Shown: positions 29,411-58,264 of the stretch, piece by piece | Position numbering within the stretch: the first letter of the stretch is position 1 | Layout: each line of letters opens with the position of its first letter | The notes under the pieces: model-generated | The model's input: the letters and a program-made list of their open reading frames with translations, nothing else | Databases searched by the model: none | Told to the model about the DNA's origin: nothing | Position numbers and translations under genes: made by a program | NCBI GenBank assembly: GCA_028713895.1 | Contig: JAQTNH010000001.1 | Span: 886,610-950,609 of the forward strand | Direction of reading: 5' to 3' | DNA length: 64,000 bases | From: Candidatus Nanoarchaeia archaeon | Lineage (GTDB): Archaea > Nanobdellota > Nanobdellia > CSSed11-243R1

Positions 29411-30625
29411 ATGGACGATATCCACAATTTGAAATTTAAACTAGAGAAAAGAATACGGCAAATAAAAGAAAATCCCAACATATCGGAGAAAAACAAAGAA
29501 CTGATTGTTCAGTTCTGCTATGAAAAAAGGGCTATAAGTCTATCGGCTGGGCGAATTTGTCAGTATGTTTTTAATTTGCATAAATTTTGCGAATTGTTGG
29601 GAAAGGATTTCGATAAAGCCACTATTGATGATTACAAAAAGGCAGTAGGGGAACTCGAACAACTGGATTGGGAGGAGGCAACAAAACAGGCAGCTAAAAT
29701 AACATTAAAGGTGTTCTTAAGATGGTTATACGGAACCAAAGAAGATCCTCAAATAATACAATGGCTGGAGATCAAAGCAAGAAACAACAATAGAAAGCTA
29801 CCTGAAGACATGTTGACAGAGGAAGATATTAAGCTATTAATTGACAATTCAAAAAGCGTAAGGGACAGGGCGTTTCTTATTACTCTATATGAATCTGGTT
29901 GCAGAATAGGGGAATTATTGCCAATTAAGATAAAAAATGTCCATTTTGATGAATACGGCGCTCAACTACTTGTTGATGGGAAAACGGGAATGCGAAGGGT
30001 CAGGATAATATCCGCAACCCCCTATCTTACTGAGTGGATTAATAAACATCCTTTAAGGCAACCAGAAGCCCCATTATGGATTACATCAAATAAAACCCGG
30101 TGGGCATATACTTCATTGAAAAAAATGCTAAGAGTACTACGTGTAAGATCTGGGCTTAAAAAAAGACTGTATCCCCATATCTTTCGCCATAGCAGGGCGA
30201 CCTATTTGGCAAACCATCTTACAGAGGCTCAATTAAAGGAGATATTTGGCTGGTCACGAAATTCCAACATGGCGGCTACGTATGTGCATTTATCCGGGCG
30301 AGACGTCGATAATGCCCTTCTGAGGACATACGGAATCAAATTGGAGGAAAAGGTTGAACCGAACGAATTAAAACCCAAAGTGTGCCCAAGATGCAATGAG
30401 GTTAATCCTGCAACAAATCAAATTTGTGCAAAATGCAGTATGATTATTGACGAACGAATGAGGAATAAACTTATTGAGGATGAATTCAACCAACGGGAAA
30501 CCGATAAAATTATTGGAAAAATGCTTGAAACGCACCCAGAATTTAAACAAGTATTCATGACTGCGTGGGGGAACGTATTTGAAGAACTATCCAGCAATAA
30601 GAAAAATAATACTAAAATCAATTAA
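29411..30625 (+). CDS. tyrosine recombinase/integrase with C-terminal zinc ribbon
   Basis: SGCRIGELL (Arg I), HIFRHSRATYL (HxxR), WSRNS..AATYVHLS (Tyr), CPRCN...CAKC. Confidence 0.85.
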   Translation: MDDIHNLKFKLEKRIRQIKENPNISEKNKELIVQFCYEKRAISLSAGRICQYVFNLHKFCELLGKDFDKATIDDYKKAVGELEQLDWEEATKQAAKITLKVFLRWLYGTKEDPQIIQWLEIKARNNNRKLPEDMLTEEDIKLLIDNSKSVRDRAFLITLYESGCRIGELLPIKIKNVHFDEYGAQLLVDGKTGMRRVRIISATPYLTEWINKHPLRQPEAPLWITSNKTRWAYTSLKKMLRVLRVRSGLKKRLYPHIFRHSRATYLANHLTEAQLKEIFGWSRNSNMAATYVHLSGRDVDNALLRTYGIKLEEKVEPNELKPKVCPRCNEVNPATNQICAKCSMIIDERMRNKLIEDEFNQRETDKIIGKMLETHPEFKQVFMTAWGNVFEELSSNKKNNTKIN

Positions 30626-30756
30626 ATTCTTGGGTTCTGATATTCTTTTTTTCTTTATTCCTTTATTCTCTTCTCCTTCCTTTATTTGATCCTTTATCTA
30701 ATGGAGAATTGATTATGCGTCGGGGTCGTCCTTTTCGACACCAGTTTAATCAACTA

Positions 30757-30776
30757 GGGCAGCCCGCAGGCTGCCC
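30757..30776. terminator. GC-rich 8-bp hairpin GGGCAGCC-CGCA-GGCTGCCC followed by ATTTATT
   Basis: Read directly; about 130 nt downstream of the integrase stop. Confidence 0.3.
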
Positions 30777-31022
30777 ATTTATTAAAATTCTTATTAATAT
30801 TCGTCTTATCTACTATCCTTTTATTAAGATTCCTTTTAGAATCGTATTACTGCTTCTTTTGTCCCTTTATTCCTTTCTTTTGCCTGCTCTTGCTTTCGAA
30901 TAAGATTTTATTTTTTATATGATAATGCCTTTACTTTGGTGCGTGCCCTTATCCCGGATTCTTTAGTATCCTATTGCATTGCTCCCTTCTTTTTTCATTG
31001 TAATTATCATATTCCTATTTTA

Positions 31023-31220
31023 CCTTGTGTAATCCACTTTGTCCTCTGCTGCTATGTGTTCCTTGAAATCCTCTTTAACCGCCTTGTATCCCCCTTTGAT
31101 TCTGGTTATTTTGTATTTCTGCTCGTTTTGGAACTTCCCTGCCTGCGCTACAGAGTTTATCAGCGCCCTCTCTATAGTTTCGCCTCTATCTCTATATCCG
31201 TGTTTTGCTCTTTTTTGTAT
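31023..31220 (-). pseudogene. start-less 66-codon open frame, possible gene remnant
   Basis: My translation: IQKRAKHGYRDRGETIERALINSVAQAGKFQNEQKYKITRIKGGYKAVKEDFKEHIAAEDKVDYTR; protein-like composition but no usable ATG/GTG/TTG start. Confidence 0.25.
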
Positions 31221-31448
31221 TTATAACACCCCTTGGTGTTTATTCTTCCTGCTATTATTCGCGTCTGATATTCTATTTTTTTTATCACCTTTTTATGACT
31301 TGGAACAAGTCTTTATTCACGTTCGTGGTTCCCCTTGGGGTTAGGGGGCATCTGCCTTCATATGACTGGACTCGTTGTCCTGTCCAAGCATTCTCGCAGA
31401 CTATACGCTTTCTCGGTGGACGTTATATTTTCTATATGTTCTCCCCAC

Positions 31449-31478
31449 CGAATAGCCTATGTCAAGGGGATGCCTAAA
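31449..31478 (+). repeat. left copy of a ~30-nt direct repeat
   Basis: CGAATAGCCTATGTCAAGGGGATGCCTAAA; 27 of 31 aligned columns match 42603..42633. Confidence 0.7.
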
Positions 31479-32418
31479 CGTCCTGCGCTCCACCCTGTTG
31501 GTTTGTCTGTTTGTATGTCTTACCTATATTTGATAAAACCGTGTCTCGTTGTTTCCAGCCTAATTTGTCCAAGTTTTCTGCGACGTCTACTATTGGTATC
31601 GTGTTATCTTTTACAAAGTCTCTAAGTAATTTGGACATATTTATCAAGACATCCTCAAATATTATGTTGAACTTTTCATTGCCTAATATCTGCTCTAACT
31701 TCTCATATTCGTTTGCACCCTCATAATACCCCATCGCTCTTGTAAAAATTGAATTAAACTCCCCAAGTGCAATATAAAATTTTTTAGAACCGTTAGTAAA
31801 ATCCATTTCTTCACAATTTTGGCATTCTTGAATTAATTTGTCCATTTCTTTAGAAATATTAAACCGACCTACCATTGACTCGTTTTTAATCTGTCTGTGT
31901 ATACTCTCCTCAATTCGGCATGCATCGTATTCTGAAACCAAATCATTTAAATTGTCTATTTTTTCCATCTGTATGTCTGTTAAATTCATTGGGGTGTTAT
32001 TATCAAAATAGACATTCCAATAAACGTGTATTACTTCGTGACAAAACGAGGCAATCATATCATTTTGATTAATATTACTGTTTACAGGGATTGTTTTCTG
32101 ATTCGTGGTGAAACAATCTTTTAAAAAAATCCCTGCGATCGGATACAGGACAATGGCGTATTTAGTATTATCATTTCTTGATCTGAACGTTTTTCCGCAT
32201 GTTTTTAGATATGTGAATTCGTTTTCCCATAGCCATCTTTGATATTCATCCTCAACCATTCGTGTTGAAAGTGCTGTTTTAACATCAGTTGTGAAAACAA
32301 CTTCTGCAAGCCTATCGTGATACTCTGTCAGAATTTTGTCTACGAATGTATTGAGGGATTTCTCAAAGTCCTTAATATTGTTGATATGAACTCCTTTTTC
32401 GTAAGTATAGACGACCAT
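31474..32418 (-). CDS. HExxH-motif protein (putative metallopeptidase)
   Basis: Single HEVIH motif (SFCHEVIHVYW); otherwise unrecognised. Confidence 0.45.
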   Translation of the reverse strand: MVVYTYEKGVHINNIKDFEKSLNTFVDKILTEYHDRLAEVVFTTDVKTALSTRMVEDEYQRWLWENEFTYLKTCGKTFRSRNDNTKYAIVLYPIAGIFLKDCFTTNQKTIPVNSNINQNDMIASFCHEVIHVYWNVYFDNNTPMNLTDIQMEKIDNLNDLVSEYDACRIEESIHRQIKNESMVGRFNISKEMDKLIQECQNCEEMDFTNGSKKFYIALGEFNSIFTRAMGYYEGANEYEKLEQILGNEKFNIIFEDVLINMSKLLRDFVKDNTIPIVDVAENLDKLGWKQRDTVLSNIGKTYKQTNQQGGAQDV

Positions 32419-32464
32419 ATTACACTCCGTTTTTCAAATCGGTTTTTTTATATACGGTTTGAGT

Positions 32465-32953
32465 TCAATAGTCGATGGTTCCCGCCCAGATTACTTTGGT
32501 TCCCATCCATCCCAATGGATCTTTGATGAATTTTACATTCGCGTAGGTTATACCATCTTTAACTGGCTTAAACGGCCAATCCATTGGACGTGTGTCATCG
32601 GATTTTTTAATATATTTTAAATAATGATCATTGAGGTCTAAAATAAATTTATCAAGATACCTAGAGACCATTTTATCTTTTAGTTCCTGCTTGTAATACC
32701 AATCATTAATTCTGATTTCCACTCTCCGATCCATTTTCAATAAATTCACTCTTTCAATAATCTCCCTTTCAAGTGGTTCCAAATCTATAGATGGAGTTCC
32801 ATCTTCAAGATATACCTCAAGTCTGACTAATGTCCCATCTTTACCTGTATCAATGCCTGCAGACATCACATCTCGAAGAGACAATTGAGCAACAACAGTG
32901 CTATCGTTTATCTTCAATAAGTGACCACGTTTTATTAGAACCGGCTTATTCAT
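32465..32953 (-). CDS. hypothetical protein
   Basis: 162-aa ORF. Confidence 0.5.
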   Translation of the reverse strand: MNKPVLIKRGHLLKINDSTVVAQLSLRDVMSAGIDTGKDGTLVRLEVYLEDGTPSIDLEPLEREIIERVNLLKMDRRVEIRINDWYYKQELKDKMVSRYLDKFILDLNDHYLKYIKKSDDTRPMDWPFKPVKDGITYANVKFIKDPLGWMGTKVIWAGTIDY

Positions 32954-33089
32954 TTAGAACACCAATTTATACTATATAGAAGTATAAGTATTTATAACTT
33001 TTTCCAAATTATAGTATTAAGTTGTTATTGGCATAATTAGAAATGGGATGGGATATTTGCTAAGAATATATGGGCCGTTATGCATTCTT

Positions 33090-34535
33090 TCAAGAATCTG
33101 TTTTCGGCTGCTGGTCCTTTTTGTCTTGAACTATCTTTTCACAAGATTCCGGGCATTCTCCACAGAATTTCGGTCTAGCCCAATCCAAACATGGATCAAG
33201 GTCTTTGATATTGTTAGTTTCAGAGGCCGTTTTTAACTTATCAATTGCACTCTTTATTAACCGCTTTCCTGCTTTAAGATTTTCAGAATCGATTTTTAGA
33301 ATATTAACGGATATTGCCTCCCCTGCGTTTGGATATAACGTTACCAATGCCCCAGTCTCGGAGTTGGTTGCAATGCATGTACAAAGCATCTGTGCTTTAT
33401 ACGCAGAATTAATATATCGTGGCACATCTTTTTTATTACTAACTCTTAACATGACGGGCACAATTTTTCGGGGATTCTCAGATCGGGAATCAAGTATTGC
33501 AGCCCACTGCCACGTTTTAAACATTGGTAAATCGAACTTCATATTTTTAATTTGGTCAATGTCTGATGTCGTTAGGGCAAGTTGATCTGACCTACCTATG
33601 GATTTTTGCATAGCGTCAAGATATGCCAGTTCTGTTGGATCCCGAGAATATTCATCCGCGATTCCATGATTTTTATCCAATATCCAGGCACGGGGCTTGA
33701 ATAAATCAAATGGTCTGAATAGAATATTGTCCGTTGTTTTATTTTTCTCCCGAAGAGTGTTCAATTCCGCTTCTTTATCCGTATCTCTTACAAGGTTAAT
33801 GGAGCTTCTGAGTACTGCTGTTGAAATGTCCTCCACAGCTCCGCAACTGCAAACTCCAGCGTCTTTAAAATCGCACCCAGGTGTAAAATATCTGCATTTT
33901 CCCAATTTGTCTGGATTGGACGTCTTTATGGCTTCATCCAAAGCCCTCTTGCGCTGTTTCAATAAATTTGTTATTTTACCAAAATCTGTTATTTCTATTT
34001 TAAAAACGGTAATCGGGAATGGGGCTTTCGTTTCCTGAAATATTAGATAGTGTATGTTATGTTTGAAAGGATGCATAACTGCGTAGAAGCATATCTGCTC
34101 GAGGTCCTGGGGGTATTTTGTAAATACTGTCTCTGGATCCATGACTCTTTCGTCTTTTGTTTTAAATTCGATTATGGAATTACCGAATCGTATATCGTAT
34201 TTTGCAATCACACCGGGTATTCCAGTATATATTCCGTCTAATGTGGTCTCTTCATCAACATAATCCGGGTGTTTTCTCAACCAAAAATAGGCGATATTCT
34301 GGAGTTTGTTGCCAAGGGATAATTTGTTTGCTATTTTTTGACTGCGCTTAATCTCTTTCCTCTTTCGCGTCCAGTAAGCCTGTGCAGGATTCACTATGTC
34401 TGTAAGATAATAATAATCCGATGGTCTTTGATCGACTAAGTATCGCTTTCTGTATGCTGCGGATAGAATGCCTGATACGGTCCCATCTGAGGAGACGCTA
34501 GCTTTTAATGAAATGATATCTTCGTACAATCCCAT
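33090..34535 (-). CDS. Cas4/RecB-like PD-(D/E)xK nuclease with cysteine clusters
   Basis: YDIRFGNSIIEFKTK (D..ExK), LEQICFYAV (QxxxY), CRYFTPGCDFKDAGVCSC and C-terminal CLDW..CGECPESC. Confidence 0.55.
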   Translation of the reverse strand: MGLYEDIISLKASVSSDGTVSGILSAAYRKRYLVDQRPSDYYYLTDIVNPAQAYWTRKRKEIKRSQKIANKLSLGNKLQNIAYFWLRKHPDYVDEETTLDGIYTGIPGVIAKYDIRFGNSIIEFKTKDERVMDPETVFTKYPQDLEQICFYAVMHPFKHNIHYLIFQETKAPFPITVFKIEITDFGKITNLLKQRKRALDEAIKTSNPDKLGKCRYFTPGCDFKDAGVCSCGAVEDISTAVLRSSINLVRDTDKEAELNTLREKNKTTDNILFRPFDLFKPRAWILDKNHGIADEYSRDPTELAYLDAMQKSIGRSDQLALTTSDIDQIKNMKFDLPMFKTWQWAAILDSRSENPRKIVPVMLRVSNKKDVPRYINSAYKAQMLCTCIATNSETGALVTLYPNAGEAISVNILKIDSENLKAGKRLIKSAIDKLKTASETNNIKDLDPCLDWARPKFCGECPESCEKIVQDKKDQQPKTDS

Positions 34536-34645
34536 GTTTTCACCACTTTATCGTATCAATGAAACCCATTGTGTCGGATATATAAGGATATGTAAACTCT
34601 TTCTGAATAACACGTTTTTATGGTGTTGCCGAACATCGAATATTT

Positions 34646-34795
34646 TTATTTCTTCCCCCGTGAACTCTTGTAGGCAGGATTGTTCGGGTTCCCCTGATTC
34701 GATTTGTTGTCCATCGTAGCCTTGTTCTCTGTGCTCGGCGGATTGTGCACATCAGACTTTTGATCGTTGCTGTTTCGTTTTTTCTCTTCGGGCAT
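34646..34795 (-). CDS. 49-aa hydrophilic low-complexity miniprotein (below the track cut-off)
   Basis: My translation: MPEEKKRNSNDQKSDVHNPPSTENKATMDNKSNQGNPNNPAYKSSRGKK. Confidence 0.25.
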   Translation of the reverse strand: MPEEKKRNSNDQKSDVHNPPSTENKATMDNKSNQGNPNNPAYKSSRGKK

Positions 34796-34889
34796 TTGAT
34801 TCACCTTTTCTATAATTTGTAAGTAGTGTGATAGAAGAGAGCGTTCTCTTCAGTATATATTAATTATGGTTACACCGTTTGTAAAGACT

Positions 34890-34918
34890 GATTTATTTAC
34901 TATATTGAAGATAAATCG
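34890..34918 (-). promoter_or_regulatory. degenerate fourth copy of the island motif
   Basis: GATTTATTTACTATATTGAAGATAAATCG versus GATTTATCTTCCATATTGAAGAAAAATC. Confidence 0.35.
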
Positions 34919-34927
34919 TAAACCTAT

Positions 34928-36175
34928 TTATTTTAACTCTTTTAAGATTTTTTTGTCATAACCCACTAGCTTGAACCAGTCTAATTGTTTGGTGTATACA
35001 TCATCTTTTTGTAAGAGCCATTCTGAAAATTCTGAATAATTCTTGAATTGTTTATCATGTATTACTTTGATTAATTCTAAAAAGAATTGAGTACCCCAAT
35101 AAATAATACTATCACTTTCGTTTTTTATTAGGACCAAATCGGTTTCTGGCCAGTCGTATTCATCACATTCGTGAGTGAATCTGTTTCTAACATCATACAA
35201 ATCATGGAATTTTGATGGCTCTGGGAATCCCCTTGAAATTCTTGAAAAGAAAAGGCATAGCCTGAACATAATCTTATATTTTTTAGGAGATTTTTCTTTC
35301 CTGGTCAATACTGCTTCTAATGCCATAAAAGTTTTAATAAGTTTCATCATTACATCAGATTCGTATTTTGCTTCCGCTAATAATTTTAAACCTGCAATTG
35401 TACATTTTACGAGTTCGTTCTCATTATTCAATAATAGTGAGCTCCACTTTTCCATATACGAAATATCGTCTTCTTCAGGGATTGAATTATCCCATCCAAT
35501 ATCATCAATCCTGGACCATTCACACCTATGTGTATTTGGTAAATGGTAGAAGATAATTTCGTCTGGAATGATTTTATTATGTCTTGTGTGCCGGGGTAAT
35601 AATGTTAATAAAGAAATAAATGCAAAACATTTACTTTTACCCCGTTGTAATGCTTTCCAAAATGAATTCGCTTTTACACGGGTGATTAAAACAACACGTC
35701 CGATATATTCTTTATATAGTCCCCACGGAGTATCTGATGCCCATTCGTTATATAACTCTTCATCAAGATGTTTTATTTGAAATTCCCCAATAGTAAGATT
35801 TTTCATTAAATCAAGGTTCTTTAAGGGCATGAGAATTTCTGTTTCTTTATCCTCTTCTGAAATCCCATCAAGCCATTTCGCAATCTCCTCAGTGGTTTTA
35901 GGTAAATCAGAGTACTTATCTTGGTTTGTGATAAAATCAAAAACAAATTCCCAAAGATGGTCTTCCAACTTACTTTTTTCTATATAATTGGTTTTATCAT
36001 AATGCAATAACAAATAAATTATTTCAGAAAATTTATCTGCTGTTTTTCCTAATAGGGTTCCTATTCCTGCCCTATATCGAAGTGATTTATGCACCTTGTT
36101 TTCTTTATCTGAACTTTTCAACAACGTCACGAATTCTTTCATTCGACTGATAATTTCATCTTTAGTTGAGATCAT
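34928..36175 (-). CDS. HEPN-motif protein (putative RNase)
   Basis: LYDVRNRFTHE = Rx4H with RN dipeptide (codons 35188..35171) inside a helical C-terminal domain. Confidence 0.5.
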   Translation of the reverse strand: MISTKDEIISRMKEFVTLLKSSDKENKVHKSLRYRAGIGTLLGKTADKFSEIIYLLLHYDKTNYIEKSKLEDHLWEFVFDFITNQDKYSDLPKTTEEIAKWLDGISEEDKETEILMPLKNLDLMKNLTIGEFQIKHLDEELYNEWASDTPWGLYKEYIGRVVLITRVKANSFWKALQRGKSKCFAFISLLTLLPRHTRHNKIIPDEIIFYHLPNTHRCEWSRIDDIGWDNSIPEEDDISYMEKWSSLLLNNENELVKCTIAGLKLLAEAKYESDVMMKLIKTFMALEAVLTRKEKSPKKYKIMFRLCLFFSRISRGFPEPSKFHDLYDVRNRFTHECDEYDWPETDLVLIKNESDSIIYWGTQFFLELIKVIHDKQFKNYSEFSEWLLQKDDVYTKQLDWFKLVGYDKKILKELK

Positions 36176-36207
36176 AAGAGAATGAATGAAAACTGTTCTA
36201 TTAAACT

Positions 36208-36762
36208 TTACGCATGATTATCTCCAGTCCCAGGCTCAAATCCCATCCACTCAAAGAAATGCCCGTGCTTGCACACCCAATGCTTCCATGTGTTCTTCTG
36301 TATCAGCCCTATGTCGCTTGTCCTGCATTTGGGGCAGACAAAGAACGATTTTCCGTATAACTTCTGCTTCTGCCACTGGTCCTGGGAAAGTTCTATGTGT
36401 TGAATAGGGAAATTACCTTTTTTATATTCCTCATACCCGCGCTCCAGGAAGCAGACCGGTGGAAGGCTGCCAAACGGCTGCATTGCCTTGAAAATGTGCC
36501 CTGCACCTGTATACCTTGCCGGGTCTGCCAATGCCACTGTGCCCTCGATAAATATGCCTGTTTTGAACTGCCTAGAACTCGCCTGGTTGGTGGCTAGGCA
36601 TTTTGAGCATTCCACCTTGAAATGCGTTTCAGAAGATTGGAATTCTGCAAACCAGATCAGGTTGTCACATTGCGTGCACCTGCCCCAGTAATTGCCCTGG
36701 AAATAGACTAACTTGTCCTCTGAAAAAGAGCCGAGTATCCTGGATTTTGTATCTGATCTCAT
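36208..36762 (-). CDS. zinc-ribbon protein
   Basis: CTQCD...CSKC and CPKC...CKHGH. Confidence 0.5.
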   Translation of the reverse strand: MRSDTKSRILGSFSEDKLVYFQGNYWGRCTQCDNLIWFAEFQSSETHFKVECSKCLATNQASSRQFKTGIFIEGTVALADPARYTGAGHIFKAMQPFGSLPPVCFLERGYEEYKKGNFPIQHIELSQDQWQKQKLYGKSFFVCPKCRTSDIGLIQKNTWKHWVCKHGHFFEWMGFEPGTGDNHA

Positions 36763-36852
36763 TAATCCACTTAGAACGAAAGGGTAGGAGATTATTTAAT
36801 AATTGTTGTTTAAAACCTCACTCGCGATTTTCGACAAACGTCTGGTTGCCAA

Positions 36853-37629
36853 TCATCTTTGCCCCCGAATTGCTGCCTGAATGTGTTTTGGCAACTCCTG
36901 TTGTAATATTTCATATCCATCAGAGTTGTCTTCGTATTCTATATGTCTTAAAACTTTAATGTCAAATGGAACATCCGCCTCTTTTTGTGTGATAATAATT
37001 ACTTCCTTTCCAAGTGTATGAGCGATTCCCAATTCATAAAATACATTCGGATTTCGCCCAGTAACATCTGCAATTATTATTTTTGCACCATTAATGGACT
37101 TCCAGATATCTTCGATTATTTTTTCTCCATAAAGATCATCAGCTCGTTTACATTCAAGACCGCACTGTTTAACGATTGGACATATGTGTTTTGACCATAT
37201 TCTTTCGGACCAGGGTTCACTAAATGGCATTAAAACAAAGCATAGTTTCTCTTGTAACGTAACATCTTTCGAAGAAAAGACCTTTGGATTGATCTGCATA
37301 GTTTCACTTCCTTCTTCAGTGGTATCTTTACTTACTTCTTTAACTTTATTTTTGATGTTCCATGGGAATGGTTTACCACATTTATGGCAAAAACCGGGAG
37401 CTTTGGTCATTGGTCCAACGCCAATGATACCTGGATAATATATTGAACCTGGGATATCAGCACTACAGTTTAGGCATTTAACAATGGTTTTTTGTCCACA
37501 TTTATCGCAATAATCTTTATTTTTTTCTGGACTTTCTTTGTATTCATCATTAATGACATGTCCATAAAGACATACCTGCATGATATCTTGCCGAGGTTTT
37601 TCATCTTCGTCGTCATCAATCGGAAACAT
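36853..37629 (-). CDS. DUF2321-type zinc ribbon fused to a nucleoside 2-deoxyribosyltransferase-like/TIR-like Rossmannoid domain
   Basis: N-terminal CLYGH..CDKCG..CLNC..CHKCGKPFPW; C-terminal CFVLMPF...IIIADVTGRNPNVFYELGIAHTLGKEVIIIT. Confidence 0.55.
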   Translation of the reverse strand: MFPIDDDEDEKPRQDIMQVCLYGHVINDEYKESPEKNKDYCDKCGQKTIVKCLNCSADIPGSIYYPGIIGVGPMTKAPGFCHKCGKPFPWNIKNKVKEVSKDTTEEGSETMQINPKVFSSKDVTLQEKLCFVLMPFSEPWSERIWSKHICPIVKQCGLECKRADDLYGEKIIEDIWKSINGAKIIIADVTGRNPNVFYELGIAHTLGKEVIIITQKEADVPFDIKVLRHIEYEDNSDGYEILQQELPKHIQAAIRGQR

Positions 37630-37680
37630 GTGTATTCTCCAGAGGATTATTGGGGTATTATTATATTAAGGTTATGAAAG

Positions 37681-37710
37681 TCGATTTATCTTCCATATTG
37701 AATAAAAATC
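37681..37710 (-). promoter_or_regulatory. island motif copy 1
   Basis: TCGATTTATCTTCCATATTGAATAAAAATC; 51 nt upstream of the start at 37629. Confidence 0.6.
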
Positions 37711-37764
37711 CAGTGTATCTTCTGTTTACCGTAATACCACTTACGATGACACATAGAATGCCAT

Positions 37765-37893
37765 TTATACTTCAGATATTTTTTTCAGAAACAAGTATTC
37801 ATCAAAACTTCTTAACTTGAGAATATCCCCAGGCTTAAGTCCCATACTATCCAACATCGCCTTTGAAAGAGTGGTTTCTCCGCGCTTTCCCAT
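37765..37893 (-). CDS. 42-aa AbrB/SpoVT-fold miniprotein (below the track cut-off)
   Basis: My translation: MGKRGETTLSKAMLDSMGLKPGDILKLRSFDEYLFLKKISEV; swapped-hairpin signature ..GLKPGD.L. Confidence 0.45.
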   Translation of the reverse strand: MGKRGETTLSKAMLDSMGLKPGDILKLRSFDEYLFLKKISEV

Positions 37894-37930
37894 TTTTACG
37901 TATTCCGCTTTTATTTCCGTGAGATCATCA

Positions 37931-38206
37931 TTAGACGCAAATTGGTATCTTCTTCTGTATCCTTTGCGGCAGGAACATCAGGCTCATAGAAGAAAGGCTG
38001 GCCCTCAGGGCTCGCTTTAGGTTTAATACCTCGATTCCGACGAGCTCATGGTTCTTGTCATAGTCCAAAACAAGGTCAATATCCCTGGTTTTGTCCTTTT
38101 CTGTGCGTTCTACTTTTTTGTCCGAGAATTTATAGTATAATGCATTTGCCTCTAAATCCCAATCAATGCTTATCTTACCATATGGTTCCATTTTGTTTTT
38201 TTCCAT
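37931..38206 (-). CDS. DUF2283-family protein
   Basis: ISIDWDLEANALYYKF...DYDKNHELVGIEVLN matches the YD.e.DaLyi...G.vvGIEIL pattern. Confidence 0.6.
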   Translation of the reverse strand: MEKNKMEPYGKISIDWDLEANALYYKFSDKKVERTEKDKTRDIDLVLDYDKNHELVGIEVLNLKRALRASLSSMSLMFLPQRIQKKIPICV

Positions 38207-38275
38207 CTTTTACACCCTAAAAATAAACTGTTTTGATAATATAAGTATTTCCTTTAAATACCGCTTATAAAAATA

Positions 38276-39052
38276 TCAATCAAAATCCAGGTTTATGTTT
38301 TTGCCACCCGTCCAGCTAATATTTTTAAAAACGTGATCTATAAAATCGAGCGTGTTTTTATATTTCAAATATTCATTTTTTCCGATAGGGTGTTTGGAAA
38401 ATGTATCTAATATTTGTCGTTTATAATGATTGATATTGTCTTCTGATATGATTATGTCTGTGTTAATAAAGGATATTTGTGGCCAATTCCAAACATACCC
38501 TTTCATTTCATTGTTGTTTTTTAAAGGGATGTTGTATTCTATGACGCAATGTCGTAAGAAATTGTCTTTTAAAAGTAATTCTTTTTTTATGGCATATGAA
38601 GTTTTTGGAGTAAAATGAATACCTATCCATTCTGCAGATTCATACCATTCACCTGCATCATTGATTGCAGGCCCGATTATTCTTGTATTATCTGTATAAT
38701 ATGTTCCGACACTGATTGCGCCTCTAAAAAATCTTGAAGATGAGAATGTTATAGCATAAAACGTCTGAATTCTCAGTAACAATACAAGCAATGCTCCGAT
38801 GGAATTTGATGAGGTAGCCTCAATAATATATGTATCCGAAAATTGGTGTATCTGAATACTAAATTCTTTCTCAAATAGTCTGGAATCTTCGACTCCTTTC
38901 TCAATCGATTTTCGCAGGTGATCTTCAAATAACCTCATATCTTCCATAAATTTTTCTGGATTTTCTCTCTCCATAATACGTTTTGTTCCCAACATATCTA
39001 TTAATAGGATTACTCCATCTTTTTTTTTCGTTTCTGTATTTTCTGGAGGCAT
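38276..39052 (-). CDS. class-III-cyclase/mCpol-like palm-domain protein
   Basis: ILLIDMLGTK (first metal Asp), QFSDTYIIEA (second Asp), FRGAISVGTYY, IIGPAINDAGEW, in the order expected for a nucleotidyl-cyclase palm; C-terminal 130 aa unknown. Confidence 0.45.
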   Translation of the reverse strand: MPPENTETKKKDGVILLIDMLGTKRIMERENPEKFMEDMRLFEDHLRKSIEKGVEDSRLFEKEFSIQIHQFSDTYIIEATSSNSIGALLVLLLRIQTFYAITFSSSRFFRGAISVGTYYTDNTRIIGPAINDAGEWYESAEWIGIHFTPKTSYAIKKELLLKDNFLRHCVIEYNIPLKNNNEMKGYVWNWPQISFINTDIIISEDNINHYKRQILDTFSKHPIGKNEYLKYKNTLDFIDHVFKNISWTGGKNINLDFD

Positions 39053-39095
39053 AGTTGATAATATTGGTATATGTATATAATTATTTGTTATATGT

Positions 39096-39125
39096 TCGAT
39101 TTATCTTCCATATTGAAGAAAAATC
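39096..39125 (-). promoter_or_regulatory. island motif copy 2
   Basis: TCGATTTATCTTCCATATTGAAGAAAAATC; 43 nt upstream of the start at 39052. Confidence 0.6.
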
Positions 39126-39170
39126 AACCATAAAGAAACATACCCCATAGTAAACGGATTTACTTCAAGA

Positions 39171-39422
39171 TTAGAATCTCAGTTTCTTCTGAAAGTTTTT
39201 ATGTAGAAATCTTAGCAGCTCCAGACATTCAGCGTTCATCCTATAGTAAAGCCTGTATTTCCCAACGTATCCTTCCCAAATACCAGGTGCATACCTGAAA
39301 GGATGGCCAAGTGGCCTACCGTGTTCTGCAATGCTTTGGACTTTCTTTTTTAATTGAATCATGATATCTTTGCTTAATGATGATAAATCTTCCATATATT
39401 CAGGAGTCGTGTTTACTATCAT
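39171..39422 (-). CDS. RelE/ParE-family toxin
   Basis: 83 aa; ..GKYRLYYRMN.. core; ATGA overlap with the upstream antitoxin. Confidence 0.65.
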   Translation of the reverse strand: MIVNTTPEYMEDLSSLSKDIMIQLKKKVQSIAEHGRPLGHPFRYAPGIWEGYVGKYRLYYRMNAECLELLRFLHKNFQKKLRF

Positions 39423-39703
39423 TGTTTTGATATCTCCTTGTCCATGTGTTCCATATATTTTTCATATGTGAAAGTTCTTCCTTTTCCGCATTCAAGGGAA
39501 TGAATTGCCTTTTGAATCTCCTTTACAAGCATGATTTCTTCTTCACTCATACTGGTGTCCACTTTCTTGACTATCATCATGTCATTAACTTTCATTACAT
39601 TCAGGATGTTACCCTTCTTATAATTTAAATTAACACGCAATAGTTTTGGAACTACAAATTCACCTTTAGTTCCGAGTTTAACATAATCTTGCATTCCGTC
39701 CAT
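39419..39703 (-). CDS. AbrB/SpoVT-type antitoxin
   Basis: VKLGTKGEFVVPKLLRVNLNYKKGNILNV. Confidence 0.65.
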   Translation of the reverse strand: MDGMQDYVKLGTKGEFVVPKLLRVNLNYKKGNILNVMKVNDMMIVKKVDTSMSEEEIMLVKEIQKAIHSLECGKGRTFTYEKYMEHMDKEISKQ

Positions 39704-39756
39704 TTTTATCCTCCTTTTATTAGGAAGAATTAGAATTGCTGGATTTATATGTGTTT

Positions 39757-39781
39757 CGGAATATTCGAATTTCGAAAATTC
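39757..39781. promoter_or_regulatory. overlapping palindromes (GAATATTC, TTCGAA x2) upstream of the TA operon
   Basis: CGGAATATTCGAATTTCGAAAATTC read directly, 54-78 nt upstream of the antitoxin start. Confidence 0.3.
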
Positions 39782-39829
39782 ATTGTTTTAAAACATATAA
39801 TGACAATATAATATTCATCTTTTTTAGCA

Positions 39830-40273
39830 TTATGTATCAATAATGGCCCTTATTCTATTTCTCAATATTGCAGGTCTATCTGTATGCAGTAGTATTATAA
39901 GGCTCCCATTATGAATTTGTAATTCTCTGTTTGAAATATTAAATCTACTTTCAAATTCGTGTATTCTTGAAAATAATGCATTTCTCTGAAATCTTGAACT
40001 ACGTAGATTTACCATCAACCTCAATATAGAATGACGTCTAATAGCTGGAACCGATTGTTGAATTGCCTCAATTATCTGTAATACATTATCTGTGAGGTGG
40101 TTTCTATTTAATAGATTGTCTATATCCTCTCCTAACCGTTCAGGAATTTGAGTGTTGATTACTATACGTAACAGATCTGCTTGACTATCAATGTTAAAGT
40201 TATTTATTAGATATGCCTGAAAAAGTAATCTACGTATTAATTCTCTGTCGCCATCGGGTATATCAACAAACAT
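39830..40273 (-). CDS. hypothetical helical protein
   Basis: 147-aa ORF. Confidence 0.5.
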   Translation of the reverse strand: MFVDIPDGDRELIRRLLFQAYLINNFNIDSQADLLRIVINTQIPERLGEDIDNLLNRNHLTDNVLQIIEAIQQSVPAIRRHSILRLMVNLRSSRFQRNALFSRIHEFESRFNISNRELQIHNGSLIILLHTDRPAILRNRIRAIIDT

Positions 40274-40293
40274 AGATTTACTTCCTTTTGTGT

Positions 40294-40746
40294 TTATTTA
40301 AAGTTATATTTTTTCTTTATGATAGTGGTTATTGGGGTAAGTAATAATCGAGTTGCTTTTCTAAAAAAATTATTTTCAGAAATAATATTTGCTATACTGG
40401 GGCTAATTCTATAGTATATCTTAATAAATTCTAGTCCTAAGAAATGGGATTTTAATACATCATCTCTCCATAGCCGTAAAATATTGATTTCTTTAGTAAA
40501 CGGGGTACCGTACGCAGCAGTTGCAATAAAACAGCCTTCATTTTGTCTGTTTTGAGGACGACTTGTGGAGGGATGATATGAATAGGGAGTTCTACAATAT
40601 GGACAGGCTAGTAATGCCCCACGATAACATCTTGGGCATACTTGATTAAATTGGTAAAGGGGGCCCTTGCAATATGGACATATCGCCTGTTCTGAGGTAT
40701 TGCCACACGCATTGCATCTATACATATTATCACCGTACCTATACAT
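40294..40746 (-). CDS. double zinc-ribbon protein with CFI-box (CFIATAAYG) domain
   Basis: CNACG..CPYC..CPRC..CPYC then GCFIATAAYGTPFTKEINILRLWRD...YYRISP. Confidence 0.55.
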   Translation of the reverse strand: MYRYGDNMYRCNACGNTSEQAICPYCKGPLYQFNQVCPRCYRGALLACPYCRTPYSYHPSTSRPQNRQNEGCFIATAAYGTPFTKEINILRLWRDDVLKSHFLGLEFIKIYYRISPSIANIISENNFFRKATRLLLTPITTIIKKKYNFK

Positions 40747-41305
40747 TTTCTATTAGATTAATTGATGCTTTTGCCATTTGACGAAGACTTATCAAAATCA
40801 AACATACTTCACTTGCAATTACAAAGAATCCAACATAGTAATATTCATCTAAAAGGTTACTAAAAGGCAGTGCTATTAATGATATTAAAAAGATTAAAAC
40901 AATAAAAATTAAGGGCTTTTTAATTGTTTCCTGTATTTTTTTCATTTGTAAATCGAATTGACTAAAATAATATGGTGCGGGATGAGTTGTTATCATTTTG
41001 CTTTGGTATGGTTGAACTTTGAAAGTAATTAACATTATTATTATAGCAAGGATTGTTCCATATGTTTCAACTATTGTACTATGAAACCAAAAAGAGATAT
41101 CATTAAAACTTTCGTTAGGTAAAAAAAATGAAAGTATTGCAAACCCTATTGAGAAAATTAAGGATACCCCGGTAATTAGAACCAATTGCCAACTCTTAAA
41201 ATCATATGTTAAAATCGACGCCAACATCGTTTTATTAACTTTTTTTATTTTCTCCCCCTGTGTCTTTTTTAAAGACGTGTTATATAAATGGGTTCGTTGT
41301 GTCAT
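40739..41305 (-). CDS. 4-TM membrane protein
   Basis: Four hydrophobic helices; 8-nt overlap with the downstream gene. Confidence 0.6.
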   Translation of the reverse strand: MTQRTHLYNTSLKKTQGEKIKKVNKTMLASILTYDFKSWQLVLITGVSLIFSIGFAILSFFLPNESFNDISFWFHSTIVETYGTILAIIIMLITFKVQPYQSKMITTHPAPYYFSQFDLQMKKIQETIKKPLIFIVLIFLISLIALPFSNLLDEYYYVGFFVIASEVCLILISLRQMAKASINLIENV

Positions 41306-41397
41306 TTATACGTAATATTATTGAGAGGTAGATATATTTTTGGATATGTACGGATTCTTTGTTTTACTACCTCATTGTGTTTTACATCACTTTTTAA

Positions 41398-41422
41398 TTA
41401 TCTTCCATATTGAAGAAAAATC
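41398..41422 (-). promoter_or_regulatory. island motif copy 3
   Basis: TTATCTTCCATATTGAAGAAAAATC, 25/25 identical to copy 2; 92 nt upstream of the start at 41305. Confidence 0.6.
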
Positions 41423-41609
41423 AGGTAGGCACCCCCATCCCTGCCATCGCCTCCAGCTCCTGAAGTTCCTTTTCATATGCCCCCTGGTCCAGTTTAACGT
41501 CCTCAACAGCGCTATAATAGCCTTCAATGGTTTCCTCGCAGTTCTGAATCCGTTCATGGAGCTCCTTAATCCTTTTCTCAATAAACTCCTTTGCAGCCAT
41601 CCTAATCAC
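41421..41609 (-). CDS. small coiled-coil protein
   Basis: 62-aa ORF, E/K-rich. Confidence 0.4.
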   Translation of the reverse strand: MIRMAAKEFIEKRIKELHERIQNCEETIEGYYSAVEDVKLDQGAYEKELQELEAMAGMGVPT

Positions 41610-41805
41610 CCCCTATTTTCCCGTATGTTCTGCCCCGTTCCTTCAAAAGCACGAGCTTTTTTCCAATGATTTCCCTATCAAGCACCCTTTCAAAGAGCTC
41701 GCGGGTTCGCTTTGCACCCAATGAGATATACCGCTTTTTTGTGTGCAGGCAGATTATCGGAGTGCCCCAGCAAGTGTGGATGTGGTAATTTACTATCTTT
41801 GCCAT
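41602..41805 (-). CDS. hypothetical small protein
   Basis: 67-aa ORF overlapping its neighbours by a few nt. Confidence 0.4.
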   Translation of the reverse strand: MAKIVNYHIHTCWGTPIICLHTKKRYISLGAKRTRELFERVLDREIIGKKLVLLKERGRTYGKIGGD

Positions 41806-41809
41806 GCTT

Positions 41810-42076
41810 TCACCCCCTCCTTCCTGATATCGGAAGGTTTCTCTGGGGTATCTCCCAAATCTGCCCTTTCTTGATCAAAGCGTCAAGCTCTGCCTCTGCG
41901 AATTCGCCCCATTCATTCTCCAAACCCTGCACAAATCCGAACCAGACAGGCTTTCCTTCGAGTTCTCCTACCTCTTCAACAGCGAACCAATACCAGCCTG
42001 TGAAGCTTTCCCAGGCTTTCAACACCTTTTTGCTGTCTATGTAGAGCTCCCTGTCCCTTGATTCAAAGGTTGCCAT
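41810..42076 (-). CDS. DUF2958-like protein
   Basis: FTGWYWFAVEE...KPVWFGFVQGLENEWGEFAEAELDAL resembles the DUF2958 pattern; start reset to the ATG at 42076. Confidence 0.4.
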   Translation of the reverse strand: MATFESRDRELYIDSKKVLKAWESFTGWYWFAVEEVGELEGKPVWFGFVQGLENEWGEFAEAELDALIKKGQIWEIPQRNLPISGRRG

Positions 42077-42413
42077 TTGAACCGCCCCGGATGTATTTCT
42101 CAAACACCTGCGCCCTGGTGATGAACCCCTCTGCTGAAATGGTTTGGTTTGATGTGCTTGCAACTGCTGATTTCAATGCAGACATCCTTATTGAGACGTC
42201 CTCGCTTAAAGCGTTGTTTTGCTTTTTACTCTGATTTGGCTTTATGAGGCTTATTTTAATAAGCTCCTTTGCCTGGTGCTCGAACTCAATTTCTGCGGCT
42301 TTTCCATAAGTTTTTACTGATTCTATTATGTCTTCATTGGCATTATACCAGGTTTCACCTATCTTTACCCCATTGTTTGCCTCGCTCCAGGCTTCTAATT
42401 TTCCTTTTTCCAT
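42063..42413 (-). CDS. hypothetical protein
   Basis: 116-aa ORF. Confidence 0.45.
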   Translation of the reverse strand: MEKGKLEAWSEANNGVKIGETWYNANEDIIESVKTYGKAAEIEFEHQAKELIKISLIKPNQSKKQNNALSEDVSIRMSALKSAVASTSNQTISAEGFITRAQVFEKYIRGGSNGNL

Positions 42414-53712: not shown

Positions 53713-54441
53713 TTATATCGATCTTGCGAGACGAAAACCGATATTACTATCACGTTGATCAGAGACGATACTATTACGCGTAGCCGATGTACAGCATGTA
53801 GCTGCGGACATGTACCAAATACCACCGCGAATAACGCGTTCAGAACCCGTTTCAGGTCCCTTAGGATTGTCCTTTGGGCTATTTCTGTAATAATATTTTT
53901 CATACCAGTCTTCGCACCATTCCCATATTTTTCCATGCATTTCATAAAATCCCCATGCGTTTGGCTTTTTCTGACCTACGATGTGGTTTTTCTTGAAACC
54001 GTACTTAGGTCCAAACCAAGCGTATCTTTCTAATAATTCTCCGTTATCTCCAAAACAAAAATTCGTACTACTTCCAGCTCGGCAAGCGTATTCCCATTCA
54101 GCTTCAGTAGGAAGGCGGTAATTTATCCCCCCTTCTATCTTATTCAATAGCGCAATAAAAATTTGGCAGTCATCCCAGGAGACACAACATATTGGGAGAT
54201 TCTTGTTACCAATATTTCTACATTTTAACATACCAGATGATTGAGTTGGACGGTGTTCCCATTTGCCCATTACAGCTTCCCAATCCTTTTGAGTTACGGT
54301 ATATATTCCAAGATAGAATGGTTTTGAAATACAAACTGTATGTATTGGATTATAATACACATCTCCCATCTCGAACTCACCAATAGGGACAAGATTAAAC
54401 TTCATACCAATACTGTTTATTTTATCAACTAGAACGTCCAT
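53713..54441 (-). CDS. FGE-sulfatase (SUMF1/FGS) domain protein
   Basis: YRLPTEAEWEYACRAG, NAWGFYEMHGKIWEWCEDWY, RVIRGG. Confidence 0.8.
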   Translation of the reverse strand: MDVLVDKINSIGMKFNLVPIGEFEMGDVYYNPIHTVCISKPFYLGIYTVTQKDWEAVMGKWEHRPTQSSGMLKCRNIGNKNLPICCVSWDDCQIFIALLNKIEGGINYRLPTEAEWEYACRAGSSTNFCFGDNGELLERYAWFGPKYGFKKNHIVGQKKPNAWGFYEMHGKIWEWCEDWYEKYYYRNSPKDNPKGPETGSERVIRGGIWYMSAATCCTSATRNSIVSDQRDSNIGFRLARSI

Positions 54442-54734
54442 TTTCTCAACTCCGTGTTTAGTTGTTCTCCACCAATCGTTATTGTAATAGTAACAACTTC
54501 ATCATTCTCTGCATCTAGATTTCCGTATTTTGCATTGCATTTATCCTCACAGTGTAGTGAGTACTGCACTTTAATTTCCATATAGTAATCTGGGACATAT
54601 TTTAAAACTTGATAAGAGGTTTCATTGATATCTGCTATATGAATTAATTGATATGATATCGAATTAAATACAATTATCATGATTAAGGACATAACTTTAC
54701 ATGTCATATAGGTTTCTATTATACCTGCCATCAA
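54429..54734 (-). CDS. small membrane-anchored protein
   Basis: N-terminal hydrophobic helix; 13-nt overlap with the FGS gene. Confidence 0.45.
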   Translation of the reverse strand: MMAGIIETYMTCKVMSLIMIIVFNSISYQLIHIADINETSYQVLKYVPDYYMEIKVQYSLHCEDKCNAKYGNLDAENDEVVTITITIGGEQLNTELRKWTF

Positions 54735-54760
54735 TTTTGGATATTAAATTATATTCTTCT

Positions 54761-57700: not shown

Positions 57701-58264
57701 ATTCATTTTCTTTCTTATGACTTTTTCGTATACACGCTCAATTTCAGTTTTTATTATAGTCTCTTTATTAAGAAATGTCTCACTTAGAATTTTGTTCCAA
57801 TCTATTTCAGAACATATCTCTTGATTAAATTTAACTAAAAAACCAAAGCCTTCTTTTTTTATTTTTTTCATATCTTTATTTTCTATTGCTTCGAGTATTT
57901 CTTTCCGTTTATTACTGTCCATTAATTTATTTTGTAATTCTTCATCAGTTATTAGTTCTGTAACGGTATCAATGGAAAAATTAAAAACTTGATCAAGAAT
58001 TTTTCTATTGATATACGCAATATTAAATGATTTTCTTCTTTGATATTCTTCCAATGTAGTATTGCCCCACGCAATTAGATATGACTCAACAGTAAAATCT
58101 TTTAATTTTTTTAACTCAGTCTTATTTGGATTAAGTTGATTTATTGTTATAATGTCTATTTTCCTTTTTTTTGAGAATAGGGGCCTATTTAAGAGACGAT
58201 ACAGGTCTCCCCCTTCGTTGGGGTTTAGTATTAATTGCTTGTTCTCTATTCTTGATTTAAGCAT
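54761..58264 (-). CDS. 1167-aa STAND-like P-loop NTPase with a long helical C-terminal region
   Basis: Walker A LYGDPASGKSIIAK, Walker B GTILIFEDIQD, about 330-aa N-terminal region, about 700-aa alpha-helical repeat-like tail. Confidence 0.65.
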   Translation of the reverse strand: MLKSRIENKQLILNPNEGGDLYRLLNRPLFSKKRKIDIITINQLNPNKTELKKLKDFTVESYLIAWGNTTLEEYQRRKSFNIAYINRKILDQVFNFSIDTVTELITDEELQNKLMDSNKRKEILEAIENKDMKKIKKEGFGFLVKFNQEICSEIDWNKILSETFLNKETIIKTEIERVYEKVIRKKMNLLKDCNFGRDIIETLNKEIKNLGVFFRYNELTSEYEQQIFIINFHNRKPKNIRYLFVRNEKNEKTLVEIIEEEIKKKPKYFKIIQQALYKDISLEKTRPNFNSFGPIWTDFMDPNSCIVKREEVDIIIKNLNDFRFHYLYGDPASGKSIIAKYVGYLLAETKCLKIYYFDRDFIKGHHESIIIDIDKIVVDGTILIFEDIQDYIEIFNKILEATNTFENITFIITSRLHRDEMDYLNKDLLFAFTEKKIQFYNIIGRNAIDKIIDNYNSYLKRKTYIEIPVERKNELIDKSGHDLWKLAYLLMSWDGKNINYEQVFSFINEYEFQHVKEKYANYNDSPLELLTLISSFYWMMFSIQIDRFFLIKVLKFNPLLIDEMLADKVLTESENLIGMSHTSIAELYYDTAKKFDYVRYLNYRIHTICNEYDDGLSNILYCYIINGAKNWVHLLRDSVSWYSKAPNRDIVKKNVLQDDRIISFFIKEINKTDNISFTFDLLELIENQIKNKMEQIIFKMDIELFCSRINKSNNVSLIAYHSDILKKYFFQVIEKIDMKNPDLKIVGAYNFLSPPPAIIRIKHLNQKLAERITMKLDTNNIVKQIDYINQFDLKMIYLIDISEGSIEKAIEIINKINTRLLIKTFFKCKINTTIRDPYINDYLEYLYMTSDENSICMEKLSFYFLYLYRLDRSDIGKILLKESKNKLITIENIGELCDFFITILRTNTGDEKIIYPLLTTKLKTNHNLIDACLCIRKIAQTSTKYKKMLYTLITKKLMDNLDNIEFSTCLNIFAGGTSKPITSEGGDWNYIRNVSVKKFWVPNSPGNDSHSINKLIKNVGFNKIKRIIRDKKVFDNFTAYSISMLYAVITTYNKEYGDKLKNIFLNKIHKMKLNLALTTIELMMDFNLSLGERLFYEIDFIKIDKKITDIERYRLIGAYSVHIEMKMIEQFKNKDEKNVTKKMLKRIRTRINEISDVLIKIDSDFPK

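Follow-up and report, generated by a model that had tools for sequence, protein, structure and literature searches.

A protein with the predicted fold of class III cyclases represents a large, unannotated family scattered across the accessory DNA of Bacteria and Archaea

Class III cyclases underlie signalling by cyclic AMP (cAMP) and cyclic GMP as well as the Pycsar anti-phage system, and the minimal palm enzymes known as mCpol have reportedly been shown of late to run an 'inverse' immune pathway called Panoptes. A feature of the Panoptes enzyme OptS is an operonic effector that carries an S-2TMbeta, CARF or SAVED sensor (PMC12657218). Here we describe a gene that an earlier note, made from the DNA letters, had described as encoding a nucleotidyl-cyclase-like or mCpol-like palm protein at the head of a three-gene operon. 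The gene is an open reading frame (ORF) with an ATG start at positions 38276-39052 of the minus strand of a 64,000-nucleotide stretch of DNA from a Candidatus Nanoarchaeia archaeon (contig JAQTNH010000001.1, positions 886,610 to 950,609; hereafter the window), and its product has 258 residues. We think it more likely than not (about 60%) that this product belongs to the accessory gene pool as a stand-alone nucleotidyltransferase, one that resembles class III cyclases but is divergent from them.

The exact 258-residue protein is already on record, where it is labelled a hypothetical protein. Used as a single query it matched nothing in Pfam (no family at E ≤ 0.1), NCBIfam, PADLOC or the PDB sequence library, and a word-indexed homologue search returned one relative only, so that the family to which it belongs came to light only with an exhaustive profile search. 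Of the 1.84 billion representatives covered by that search, 1,899 matched at E ≤ 1e-3, each standing for a cluster, and 776 of these at E ≤ 1e-10; the matching proteins are for the most part 230-300 residues long and align over their full length. Among 65 members that we aligned, none has a significant Pfam match and none has a PADLOC match. The hosts, archaeal and other, include Omnitrophica, Bathyarchaeota, Thermoproteota, Thermoplasmata, Methanoregula, Bryobacterales, Lentisphaerae, Dehalococcoidia, Edwardsbacteria, Silvanigrellaceae, Fusobacterium and plasmids of Bacillus. No phage-encoded homologue was found in 50,697 phage records, and one IMG/VR contig (L068) carries a homologue. Taken together, these searches indicate a large and unannotated family that is scattered horizontally across the accessory DNA of Bacteria and Archaea.

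Four palm-domain motifs had been quoted from the product in the earlier note, and all four are present in the order given there, at residues 15-24, 70-79, 109-116 and 127-136. They are listed here together with further conserved elements of the cyclase homology domain (CHD) and of the C-terminus, all on the minus strand:

38276-39052, minus strand: protein of 258 residues with a predicted, divergent class III CHD, assigned from the ORF, the family, an AlphaFold2 (AF2) model and Foldseek
38981-39010, minus strand: beta-1 motif ILLIDMLGTK, residues 15-24, with D19 as the putative first metal-binding Asp by alignment with human soluble adenylyl cyclase (sAC)
38816-38845, minus strand: beta-2/beta-3 hairpin motif QFSDTYIIEA, residues 70-79, with D73 as the putative second metal-binding Asp
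38705-38728, minus strand: beta-4 motif FRGAISVG, residues 109-116, with R110 conserved in 64/65 homologues and G111 and G116 invariant
38642-38674, minus strand: helix motif GPAINDAGEWY, starting at residue 127, counterpart of GxxVNxAxR, with E135 at the Arg position
38480-38536, minus strand: second half of the CHD, with the YxxPxK turn (K178) and the NWP motif (W190), from conservation and model strands
38342-38365, minus strand: family-specific C-terminal helix motif KYKNTLDF, from conservation and a helix at 225-244 in the model

The counts come from the alignment of 65 homologues, each of which is 22-33% identical to the query. D19, G22, D73, G111, G116, G127 and T234 are invariant (65/65), and R110, P128 (61/65), A129 (59/65), G144 and P149 are nearly so, as are P176 (63), W190 (64), K230 (64), N233 (61) and F237 (60) in the C-terminal part. 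Lys or Arg stands at the position of K24 in 61/65 members, S72 and T74 on either side of D73 are found in 53/65 and 58/65, and the YxxPxK turn is represented by Y173 in 56/65 and by K178 in 54/65. Because the four motifs are among the most conserved positions of the family, we regard them as a family signature and not as chance matches.

A model of the 258-residue protein built by AF2 from 31 homologues is confident (mean predicted local distance difference test score 88.7, predicted template modelling score 0.86) and opens with a beta-alpha-beta-beta-alpha-beta topology, in which strands 65-71 and 74-80 frame D73; further on, strands 170-177 and 181-188 frame the YxxPxK turn. Comparison of the model with the PDB by Foldseek gave 85 matches at E ≤ 1e-3, the best 50 of which are all class III adenylate or guanylate cyclases (best E 5e-7, probability 1.0; target-normalised template modelling score, or TM-score, 0.55-0.67 for single-domain targets). 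The structural matches include the soluble domain of a bacterial adenylyl cyclase (5o5l), sAC, the C1 and C2 domains of transmembrane adenylyl cyclase, soluble guanylyl cyclase, CyaC, CyaB, Rv1900c and photoactivated cyclases. Among predicted viral structures, high scores were obtained only for giant-virus proteins of the guanylate-cyclase type, and one GGDEF protein matched at E 0.087. A distant family member, the fusion protein P0181, was modelled separately, and its C-terminal domain likewise has the class III cyclase fold. The nucleotidyl-cyclase palm fold proposed in the earlier note is thereby borne out, and we conclude from the models that the 258-residue protein is predicted to be a complete class III CHD and not a palm of the mCpol, Cas10 or GGDEF type.

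The same comparison bears on the C-terminal half, about 130 residues that had previously been left unassigned. Since the Foldseek alignments with cyclases cover 187-214 columns, we infer that most of it belongs to the second part of the CHD, which appears to include the strand WIGIHFTP, next after the GPA helix, as well as the hairpin at 170-188 with its YxxPxK turn. What lies beyond the CHD, and to that extent does stand apart, is a two-helix extension of about 55 residues, a family-specific hairpin that carries the conserved KYxNTxxF motif.

Alignment of the family with sAC places the two metal-binding residues. The family hidden Markov model (HMM) matched human sAC among the PDB sequences at E 0.045, hhalign matched the C1 segment of sAC with a probability of 75.6% (E 2.4e-5), and in both the HMMER and the hhalign profile alignments D19 falls on sAC Asp47 and D73 on Asp99, as the check proposed in the earlier note had asked. 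In sAC, Asp47 and Asp99 take part in ATP binding through divalent cations (PMC12250328). By these alignments D19 and D73 occupy the positions of the two metal-binding Asp residues. The LGTK loop of the beta-1 motif is the counterpart of the class III FxDIxGFT phosphate-binding loop. From motif register and what is known of class III enzymes, R110, which lies on beta-4 in an RGxxxxG context, would be the triphosphate-binding Arg, and by motif register K178 would be the phosphate-binding Lys of class III beta7-beta8.

The protein thus shares with class III cyclases such as sAC C1, CyaC and Rv1900c the same fold over about 190-210 positions, equivalent residues for both metal-binding Asp, a Gly-rich phosphate loop after beta-1, the beta-4 Arg and an 'I-x-h-S/T-P' strand after the helix. 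Unlike them, the family has no significant Pfam match, lacks the transition-state Arg, mostly has Asp at the Asn position, does not appear to conserve the residues that specify the base (Lys/Asp for ATP, Glu/Cys for GTP), carries the extra C-terminal helical hairpin (KYxNTxxF), has no regulatory or sensor domain, and is distributed in scattered fashion through accessory genomes. The C1 half of heterodimeric cyclases likewise has the Asp residues but not the Asn/Arg pair; here that condition is combined with a rebuilt second half-site. Pycsar PycC resembles the family as a small CHD-fold enzyme that occurs in defence contexts without the elaborate regulatory domains of housekeeping cyclases, but differs in that neither the query nor any of the 65 members matches a PADLOC model, those for Pycsar included, and in that no effector with a domain binding cyclic nucleoside monophosphates (cNMPs) is adjacent. 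Both mCpol/OptS and the present family consist of small stand-alone palm nucleotide enzymes with two active-site Asp residues, spread widely but sparsely in both prokaryotic domains and sometimes found near SMODS (in our set, at locus L005). Proteins of the present family, however, exceed the mCpol core by about 100 residues and possess the second half of the CHD in full; the structural neighbours of the family are class III cyclases, it has no Pfam match, and S-2TMbeta, CARF and SAVED partners are absent, so we have dropped the mCpol/Cas10-like label given in the earlier note. PycC and mCpol/OptS are functional analogies only. We also considered a Thg1-like polymerase, which would have a similar length and an SDT/SDE-like hairpin, and rejected it, since Thg1 is missing both from the Pfam matches of the 65 members and from the 50 best structural matches.

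On the reading we favour, the protein would dimerise as other CHDs do, would use D19 and D73 to hold two divalent metals and, through these and with help from R110, K178 and the LGTK loop, would bind a nucleoside triphosphate (NTP), and would catalyse nucleotidyl transfer with release of pyrophosphate. Both NTP binding and two-metal chemistry are likely. The canonical residues of the second half-site are replaced by the acidic pair 131/132, by the aromatic residues W136, Y137, W142 and W190, and by K230, N233 and T234 of the C-terminal helix. With the Asn/Arg pair and, it appears, the purine-specifying residues replaced in this way, the sequence does not reveal which substrate is used or which product is made, and both probably depart from the canonical ones.

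Several observations weigh against this reading. At the position of the transition-state Arg (135) there is no conserved Arg, the commonest residues being Glu (26 of 65), Ser (13) and Asp (7), and the query itself has E135. At the Asn position (131) the query has N131, but only 9/65 members have Asn and 43/65 have Asp; position 132 is Asp in 38/65 and Glu in 27/65, which makes 131/132 a conserved acidic pair. The base-specifying position H69, four residues before D73, is not conserved (Tyr, Thr and Ser are commonest), and the second specificity residue could be placed only tentatively. Homology by sequence alone is marginal, as the E of 0.045 against the PDB indicates, and the Pfam model Guanylate_cyc (PF00211) leaves the query unmatched at E ≤ 1 and matches two of the 65 members at E 0.011. 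Turnover by the 258-residue protein and its dimerisation are predictions, as are the roles given to R110, K178, K230, N233 and T234. Finally, some homologues lie among housekeeping genes (L072 and L075), for example genes for ribonucleotide reductase and PMSR.

With the canonical Arg gone, the Asn mostly replaced by Asp and the base position variable, the domain could be a non-cyclase transferase or a binding module. We consider it rather unlikely, though worth keeping in view, that the CHD has been re-purposed as a nucleotidyltransferase acting on a macromolecule or small molecule, or as a nucleotide-binding regulatory module, and does not act as a cyclase that makes a diffusible cNMP. The losses just described point that way, as do the lack of a Pfam cyclase match and the appearance of new invariant or near-invariant residues (T234, K230, N233, W190 and the acidic pair 131/132). 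Set against them are the retention of the whole CHD, including both metal-binding Asp and the putative phosphate-binding Arg and Lys, the fact that the best structural matches are all bona fide cyclases, and the lack of any Thg1, GGDEF or mCpol Pfam match among the 65 members.

A protein partner was found in one clade of the family. With a 9-sequence alignment we located related loci, of which 76 were fetched, and in this clade the cyclase-like gene is directly preceded on the same strand by a partner gene, with a spacing that ranges from a 47-nucleotide overlap to a gap of 3 nucleotides. These loci come from two Bacillus plasmids (one of the plasmid operons lies at 107886-109197 of NZ_CP020745), one Lentisphaerae metagenome-assembled genome and several metagenomic contigs. 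The partner is about 215 residues long in most loci and about 130-150 residues in L049 and L051/L058. Its C-terminal domain is Pfam PF21648, an M1E1E6-like 'integron cassette protein', and in its N-terminal part a His-rich stretch is conserved (HHxYMxxNRG ... FYxHIHPxEDLL) for which no known family gives a match. Fusion of the partner and the cyclase-like protein into one polypeptide was seen in at least five protein clusters. Loci in which the two are linked or fused are:

L069, 5325-6636
L070, 5302-6645
L056, 5342-6720
L015, 5305-6714
L066, 98-1564

When the partner domain was superposed on Vch_cass3 (PDB 3FY6), a dimeric protein with an alpha+beta fold whose function is unknown (PMC3548836), the TM-score normalised by the target was 0.72. 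The seven members linked to the partner all group together as one clade of a neighbour-joining tree, in which the window protein is placed elsewhere. An HMM of the partner found no match in the whole 64-kb window. Apart from the Vch_cass3-like domain, no partner recurs in the family. For the family as a whole this association is evidence that the enzyme is able to act together with a dedicated partner, evidence that does not apply directly to the window locus, and, by hinting at a protein partner or substrate, it also lends something to the idea of a re-purposed CHD. A tentative extension of our reading, possible but doubtful, is that the family comprises 'mini' class III cyclases, spread across both domains and with a rebuilt substrate half-site, that make a non-canonical conflict signal for which the Vch_cass3-like protein would be the receiver in this one clade.

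Elsewhere in the family the neighbourhoods are variable. Their analysis drew on the first 68 loci, grouped at 60% identity into 39 non-redundant clusters, and a Pfam and PADLOC scan covered 150 neighbours within 2.6 kb at 38 non-redundant loci. No neighbour family was found in more than two of these 38 loci, and none of the 150 neighbours has an S-2TMbeta, CARF, SAVED or cNMP-binding domain. All-against-all BLAST of the neighbours revealed only lineage-level synteny, in one Bathyarchaeota clade, where the cyclase-like gene is always convergent, with a gap of 2-23 nucleotides, with the gene for an AAA_16-TPR-TIR STAND protein of about 1,120 residues; the STAND proteins, at 25-89% identity, have diverged far more quickly than the cyclase-like proteins, at 80-100%. 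Many homologue neighbourhoods carry defence, toxin-antitoxin or mobile-element genes, as the following contexts illustrate:

L007, 6741-10103, minus strand: STAND protein, with related loci L016-L022, L027 and L030
L001: Type III restriction-modification and reverse transcriptase
L002: BsaWI restriction-modification
L005: SMODS, helicase, resolvase and ArdC
Bacillus thuringiensis plasmid pMC319: ATPase with HNH, and OLD nuclease
Other loci: Fic/Fic_N; a ubiquitin-like system with AAA_15/Ntox37; SLFN_AlbA_2
Other loci: SIR2, reverse-transcriptase and IS200 genes; integrases (L010 and L026)

In the window, the gene lies within a block of minus-strand genes at about 30.7-42.4 kb whose guanine-plus-cytosine (GC) content is low (32-39%, against 42-46% in the flanks). 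The block adjoins, and is convergent with, a gene for an XerA/XerC-like tyrosine recombinase with a C-terminal zinc ribbon (29411-30625, plus strand), homologues of which also occur near the cyclase-like gene in L010 and L026. The low-GC block (about 30700-42400) looks like an integrated island; a tRNA was looked for as an integration site, and there is none in the 64-kb window. A second stretch, at 54000-58000, has a very low GC content (26-28%) and holds an ORF of 1,167 residues (54761-58264, minus strand).

The island is rich in toxin-antitoxin and effector-like genes and is divided into gene groups by a repeat. The upstream motif that the earlier note had reported for neighbouring modules is real: it is an imperfect palindrome of 28-30 nucleotides (GATTTTTCTTCAATATGGAAGATAAATCGA; arms GATTT-TCTTC / GAAGA-AAATC), present in the window in four copies where none is expected by chance:

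34888-34917, minus strand: palindrome copy
37681-37710, minus strand: palindrome copy from the repeat search, at the end of the group of the cyclase-like gene and the start of the DUF2321/TIR-like group
39096-39125, minus strand: operator-like palindrome 44 nucleotides before the start codon of the cyclase-like gene, marking the start of its gene group
41393-41422, minus strand: palindrome copy

All four copies are found upstream of the leading ORF of a gene group, with conservation of the core and not of the flanks. From its sequence, the palindrome looks like a shared operator for a dimeric regulator. We considered whether the island might be an integron cassette array and rejected this possibility, because the recombinase is XerA/XerC-like and convergent with the block, integron-integrase models match only partially and far below their cut-offs, and the repeat is a 28-30-nucleotide palindrome with unconserved flanks and not an attC site. 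The cyclase-like gene is the first of its palindrome-delimited group. The other genes of this group and the notable genes of the groups on either side are:

37931-38206, minus strand: DUF2283 protein of 91 residues, 69 nucleotides downstream of the cyclase-like gene (Pfam PF10049, E 9e-10, above cut-off)
37765-37893, minus strand: ORF of 42 residues, possibly a mini AbrB/MazE-like protein (weak matches), after a 37-nucleotide gap from the DUF2283 gene
36853-37629, minus strand: protein of 258 residues with a DUF2321 zinc-ribbon N-terminus (E 1.7e-26) and a C-terminus like TIR or nucleoside deoxyribosyltransferase (NDT)
39171-39422, minus strand: ParE-like protein of 83 residues (Pfam E 2.9e-4, just below cut-off)
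39419-39703, minus strand: AbrB-type protein of 94 residues (NCBIfam AbrB domain, E 2.8e-4)
40294-40746, minus strand: protein of 150 residues with an N-terminal double zinc ribbon and CFI-box-CTERM (NCBIfam NF041770, E 1.6e-24)
40739-41305, minus strand: protein of 188 residues with four hydrophobic segments by hydropathy (four-transmembrane protein)

Of the two downstream genes claimed in the earlier note, the DUF2283 gene is confirmed by its Pfam match, and the AbrB fold of the 42-residue ORF is reflected only in signals below the respective cut-offs (MazE_antitoxin in Pfam, E 0.022; doc_partner in NCBIfam, E 0.009; AbrB, E 0.067). Similarly, two of the three effector folds ascribed to neighbouring modules hold: the product of 36853-37629 matches the PADLOC TIR effector (E 2e-12) and Pfam Nuc_deoxyrib_tr (E 0.003), and the four-transmembrane protein is at 40739-41305. 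For the third, a HEPN domain ascribed to 34928-36175, there is no Pfam or NCBIfam match, and the sequence shows an RNRFTH string by eye only. In the DUF2321/TIR-like group the TIR-like gene comes first and is followed by genes for a 184-residue zinc-ribbon protein and a 415-residue protein without database matches; a further palindrome-marked group consists of a gene for a 481-residue protein and the genes after it. The group upstream of the cyclase-like gene comprises the four-transmembrane protein, the CFI-box-CTERM zinc-ribbon protein (the start of whose gene overlaps the end of that for the 188-residue protein), a 147-residue protein and, directly upstream of the palindrome of the cyclase-like gene, the AbrB-type and ParE-like genes, which overlap by 4 nucleotides and from their sequences are probably a toxin-antitoxin pair.

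The arrangement in the island raises the question of whether the cyclase-like protein generates the signal in a second-messenger defence system made up of several genes, its product sensed by the DUF2283 or AbrB-like protein or by effectors of the neighbouring modules. A cyclase fold with an intact metal site, the same palindrome before four gene groups, which suggests co-regulation, TIR/NDT-like and four-transmembrane proteins among the neighbours, and a DUF2283 gene 209 nucleotides upstream of the homologue in L009 would all fit such a system. We nevertheless think it improbable. Nothing but the shared palindrome, in one genome, links the cyclase-like gene to its TIR-like, HEPN-like and transmembrane neighbours, and the palindrome is absent from all 74 related loci. 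As the earlier note had reported, CARF, SAVED and cNMP-binding domains were not found in the scanned ORFs of the island, nor was S-2TMbeta, and a search of the island for a riboswitch or other RNA receiver found none, giving one sub-threshold chance match. The window neighbours do not recur beside homologues, only the tyrosine recombinase being shared, with L010 and L026, and this fits the finding that no neighbour family occurs in more than two of the 38 loci. In particular, L009 is the only other locus with a DUF2283 gene near the homologue, and since DUF2283 recurs once and no neighbour is recurrent, the three-gene arrangement of the window, which the earlier note had read as an operon and possible signalling module, is not a conserved system. 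The DUF2283 and mini-AbrB genes are local cargo and not obligate partners.

It is very improbable that the protein is the toxin of a toxin-antitoxin-like module, for instance one that depletes NTPs, with DUF2283 and/or the mini-AbrB protein as antitoxin or repressor: small proteins with DUF2283 or an AbrB fold are usually taken to be of the antitoxin type, a ParE-like/AbrB-like pair flanks the gene, DUF2283 is adjacent in two of about 39 non-redundant loci and many homologues lie in stretches rich in toxin-antitoxin genes, but no conserved adjacent antitoxin gene of the kind that defines type II systems is found across the homologues (DUF2283 being present in the window and L009 only), most homologues lack a conserved adjacent small same-strand partner, the small same-strand neighbours are, apart from DUF2283 in L009, mutually unrelated or, in many cases, spurious-looking, and the enzyme-first order with gaps of 69 and 37 nucleotides is not diagnostic.

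We therefore return to a stand-alone, divergent class III cyclase-like nucleotidyltransferase. Its role would most likely be that of a nucleotide-signal generator or a nucleotide-consuming enzyme of a conflict-related gene pool; a role in defence signalling is plausible, and any receiver would be encoded elsewhere. The result would be modest if the enzyme proved to be no more than a cAMP cyclase carried by mobile elements, and the present data do not demonstrate a new signalling system. What the analysis adds is a family, no smaller than about 1,900 sequence clusters, with a cyclase fold and an intact metal site that Pfam, NCBIfam and PADLOC miss, together with, in the clade-specific fusion, a first functional link for the orphan Vch_cass3 fold. 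An unannotated cyclase-fold family that moves between Bacteria and Archaea in variable and often defence-rich regions is a candidate source of new nucleotide chemistry or of a signalling arm not described before, and is a worthwhile target for biochemistry.

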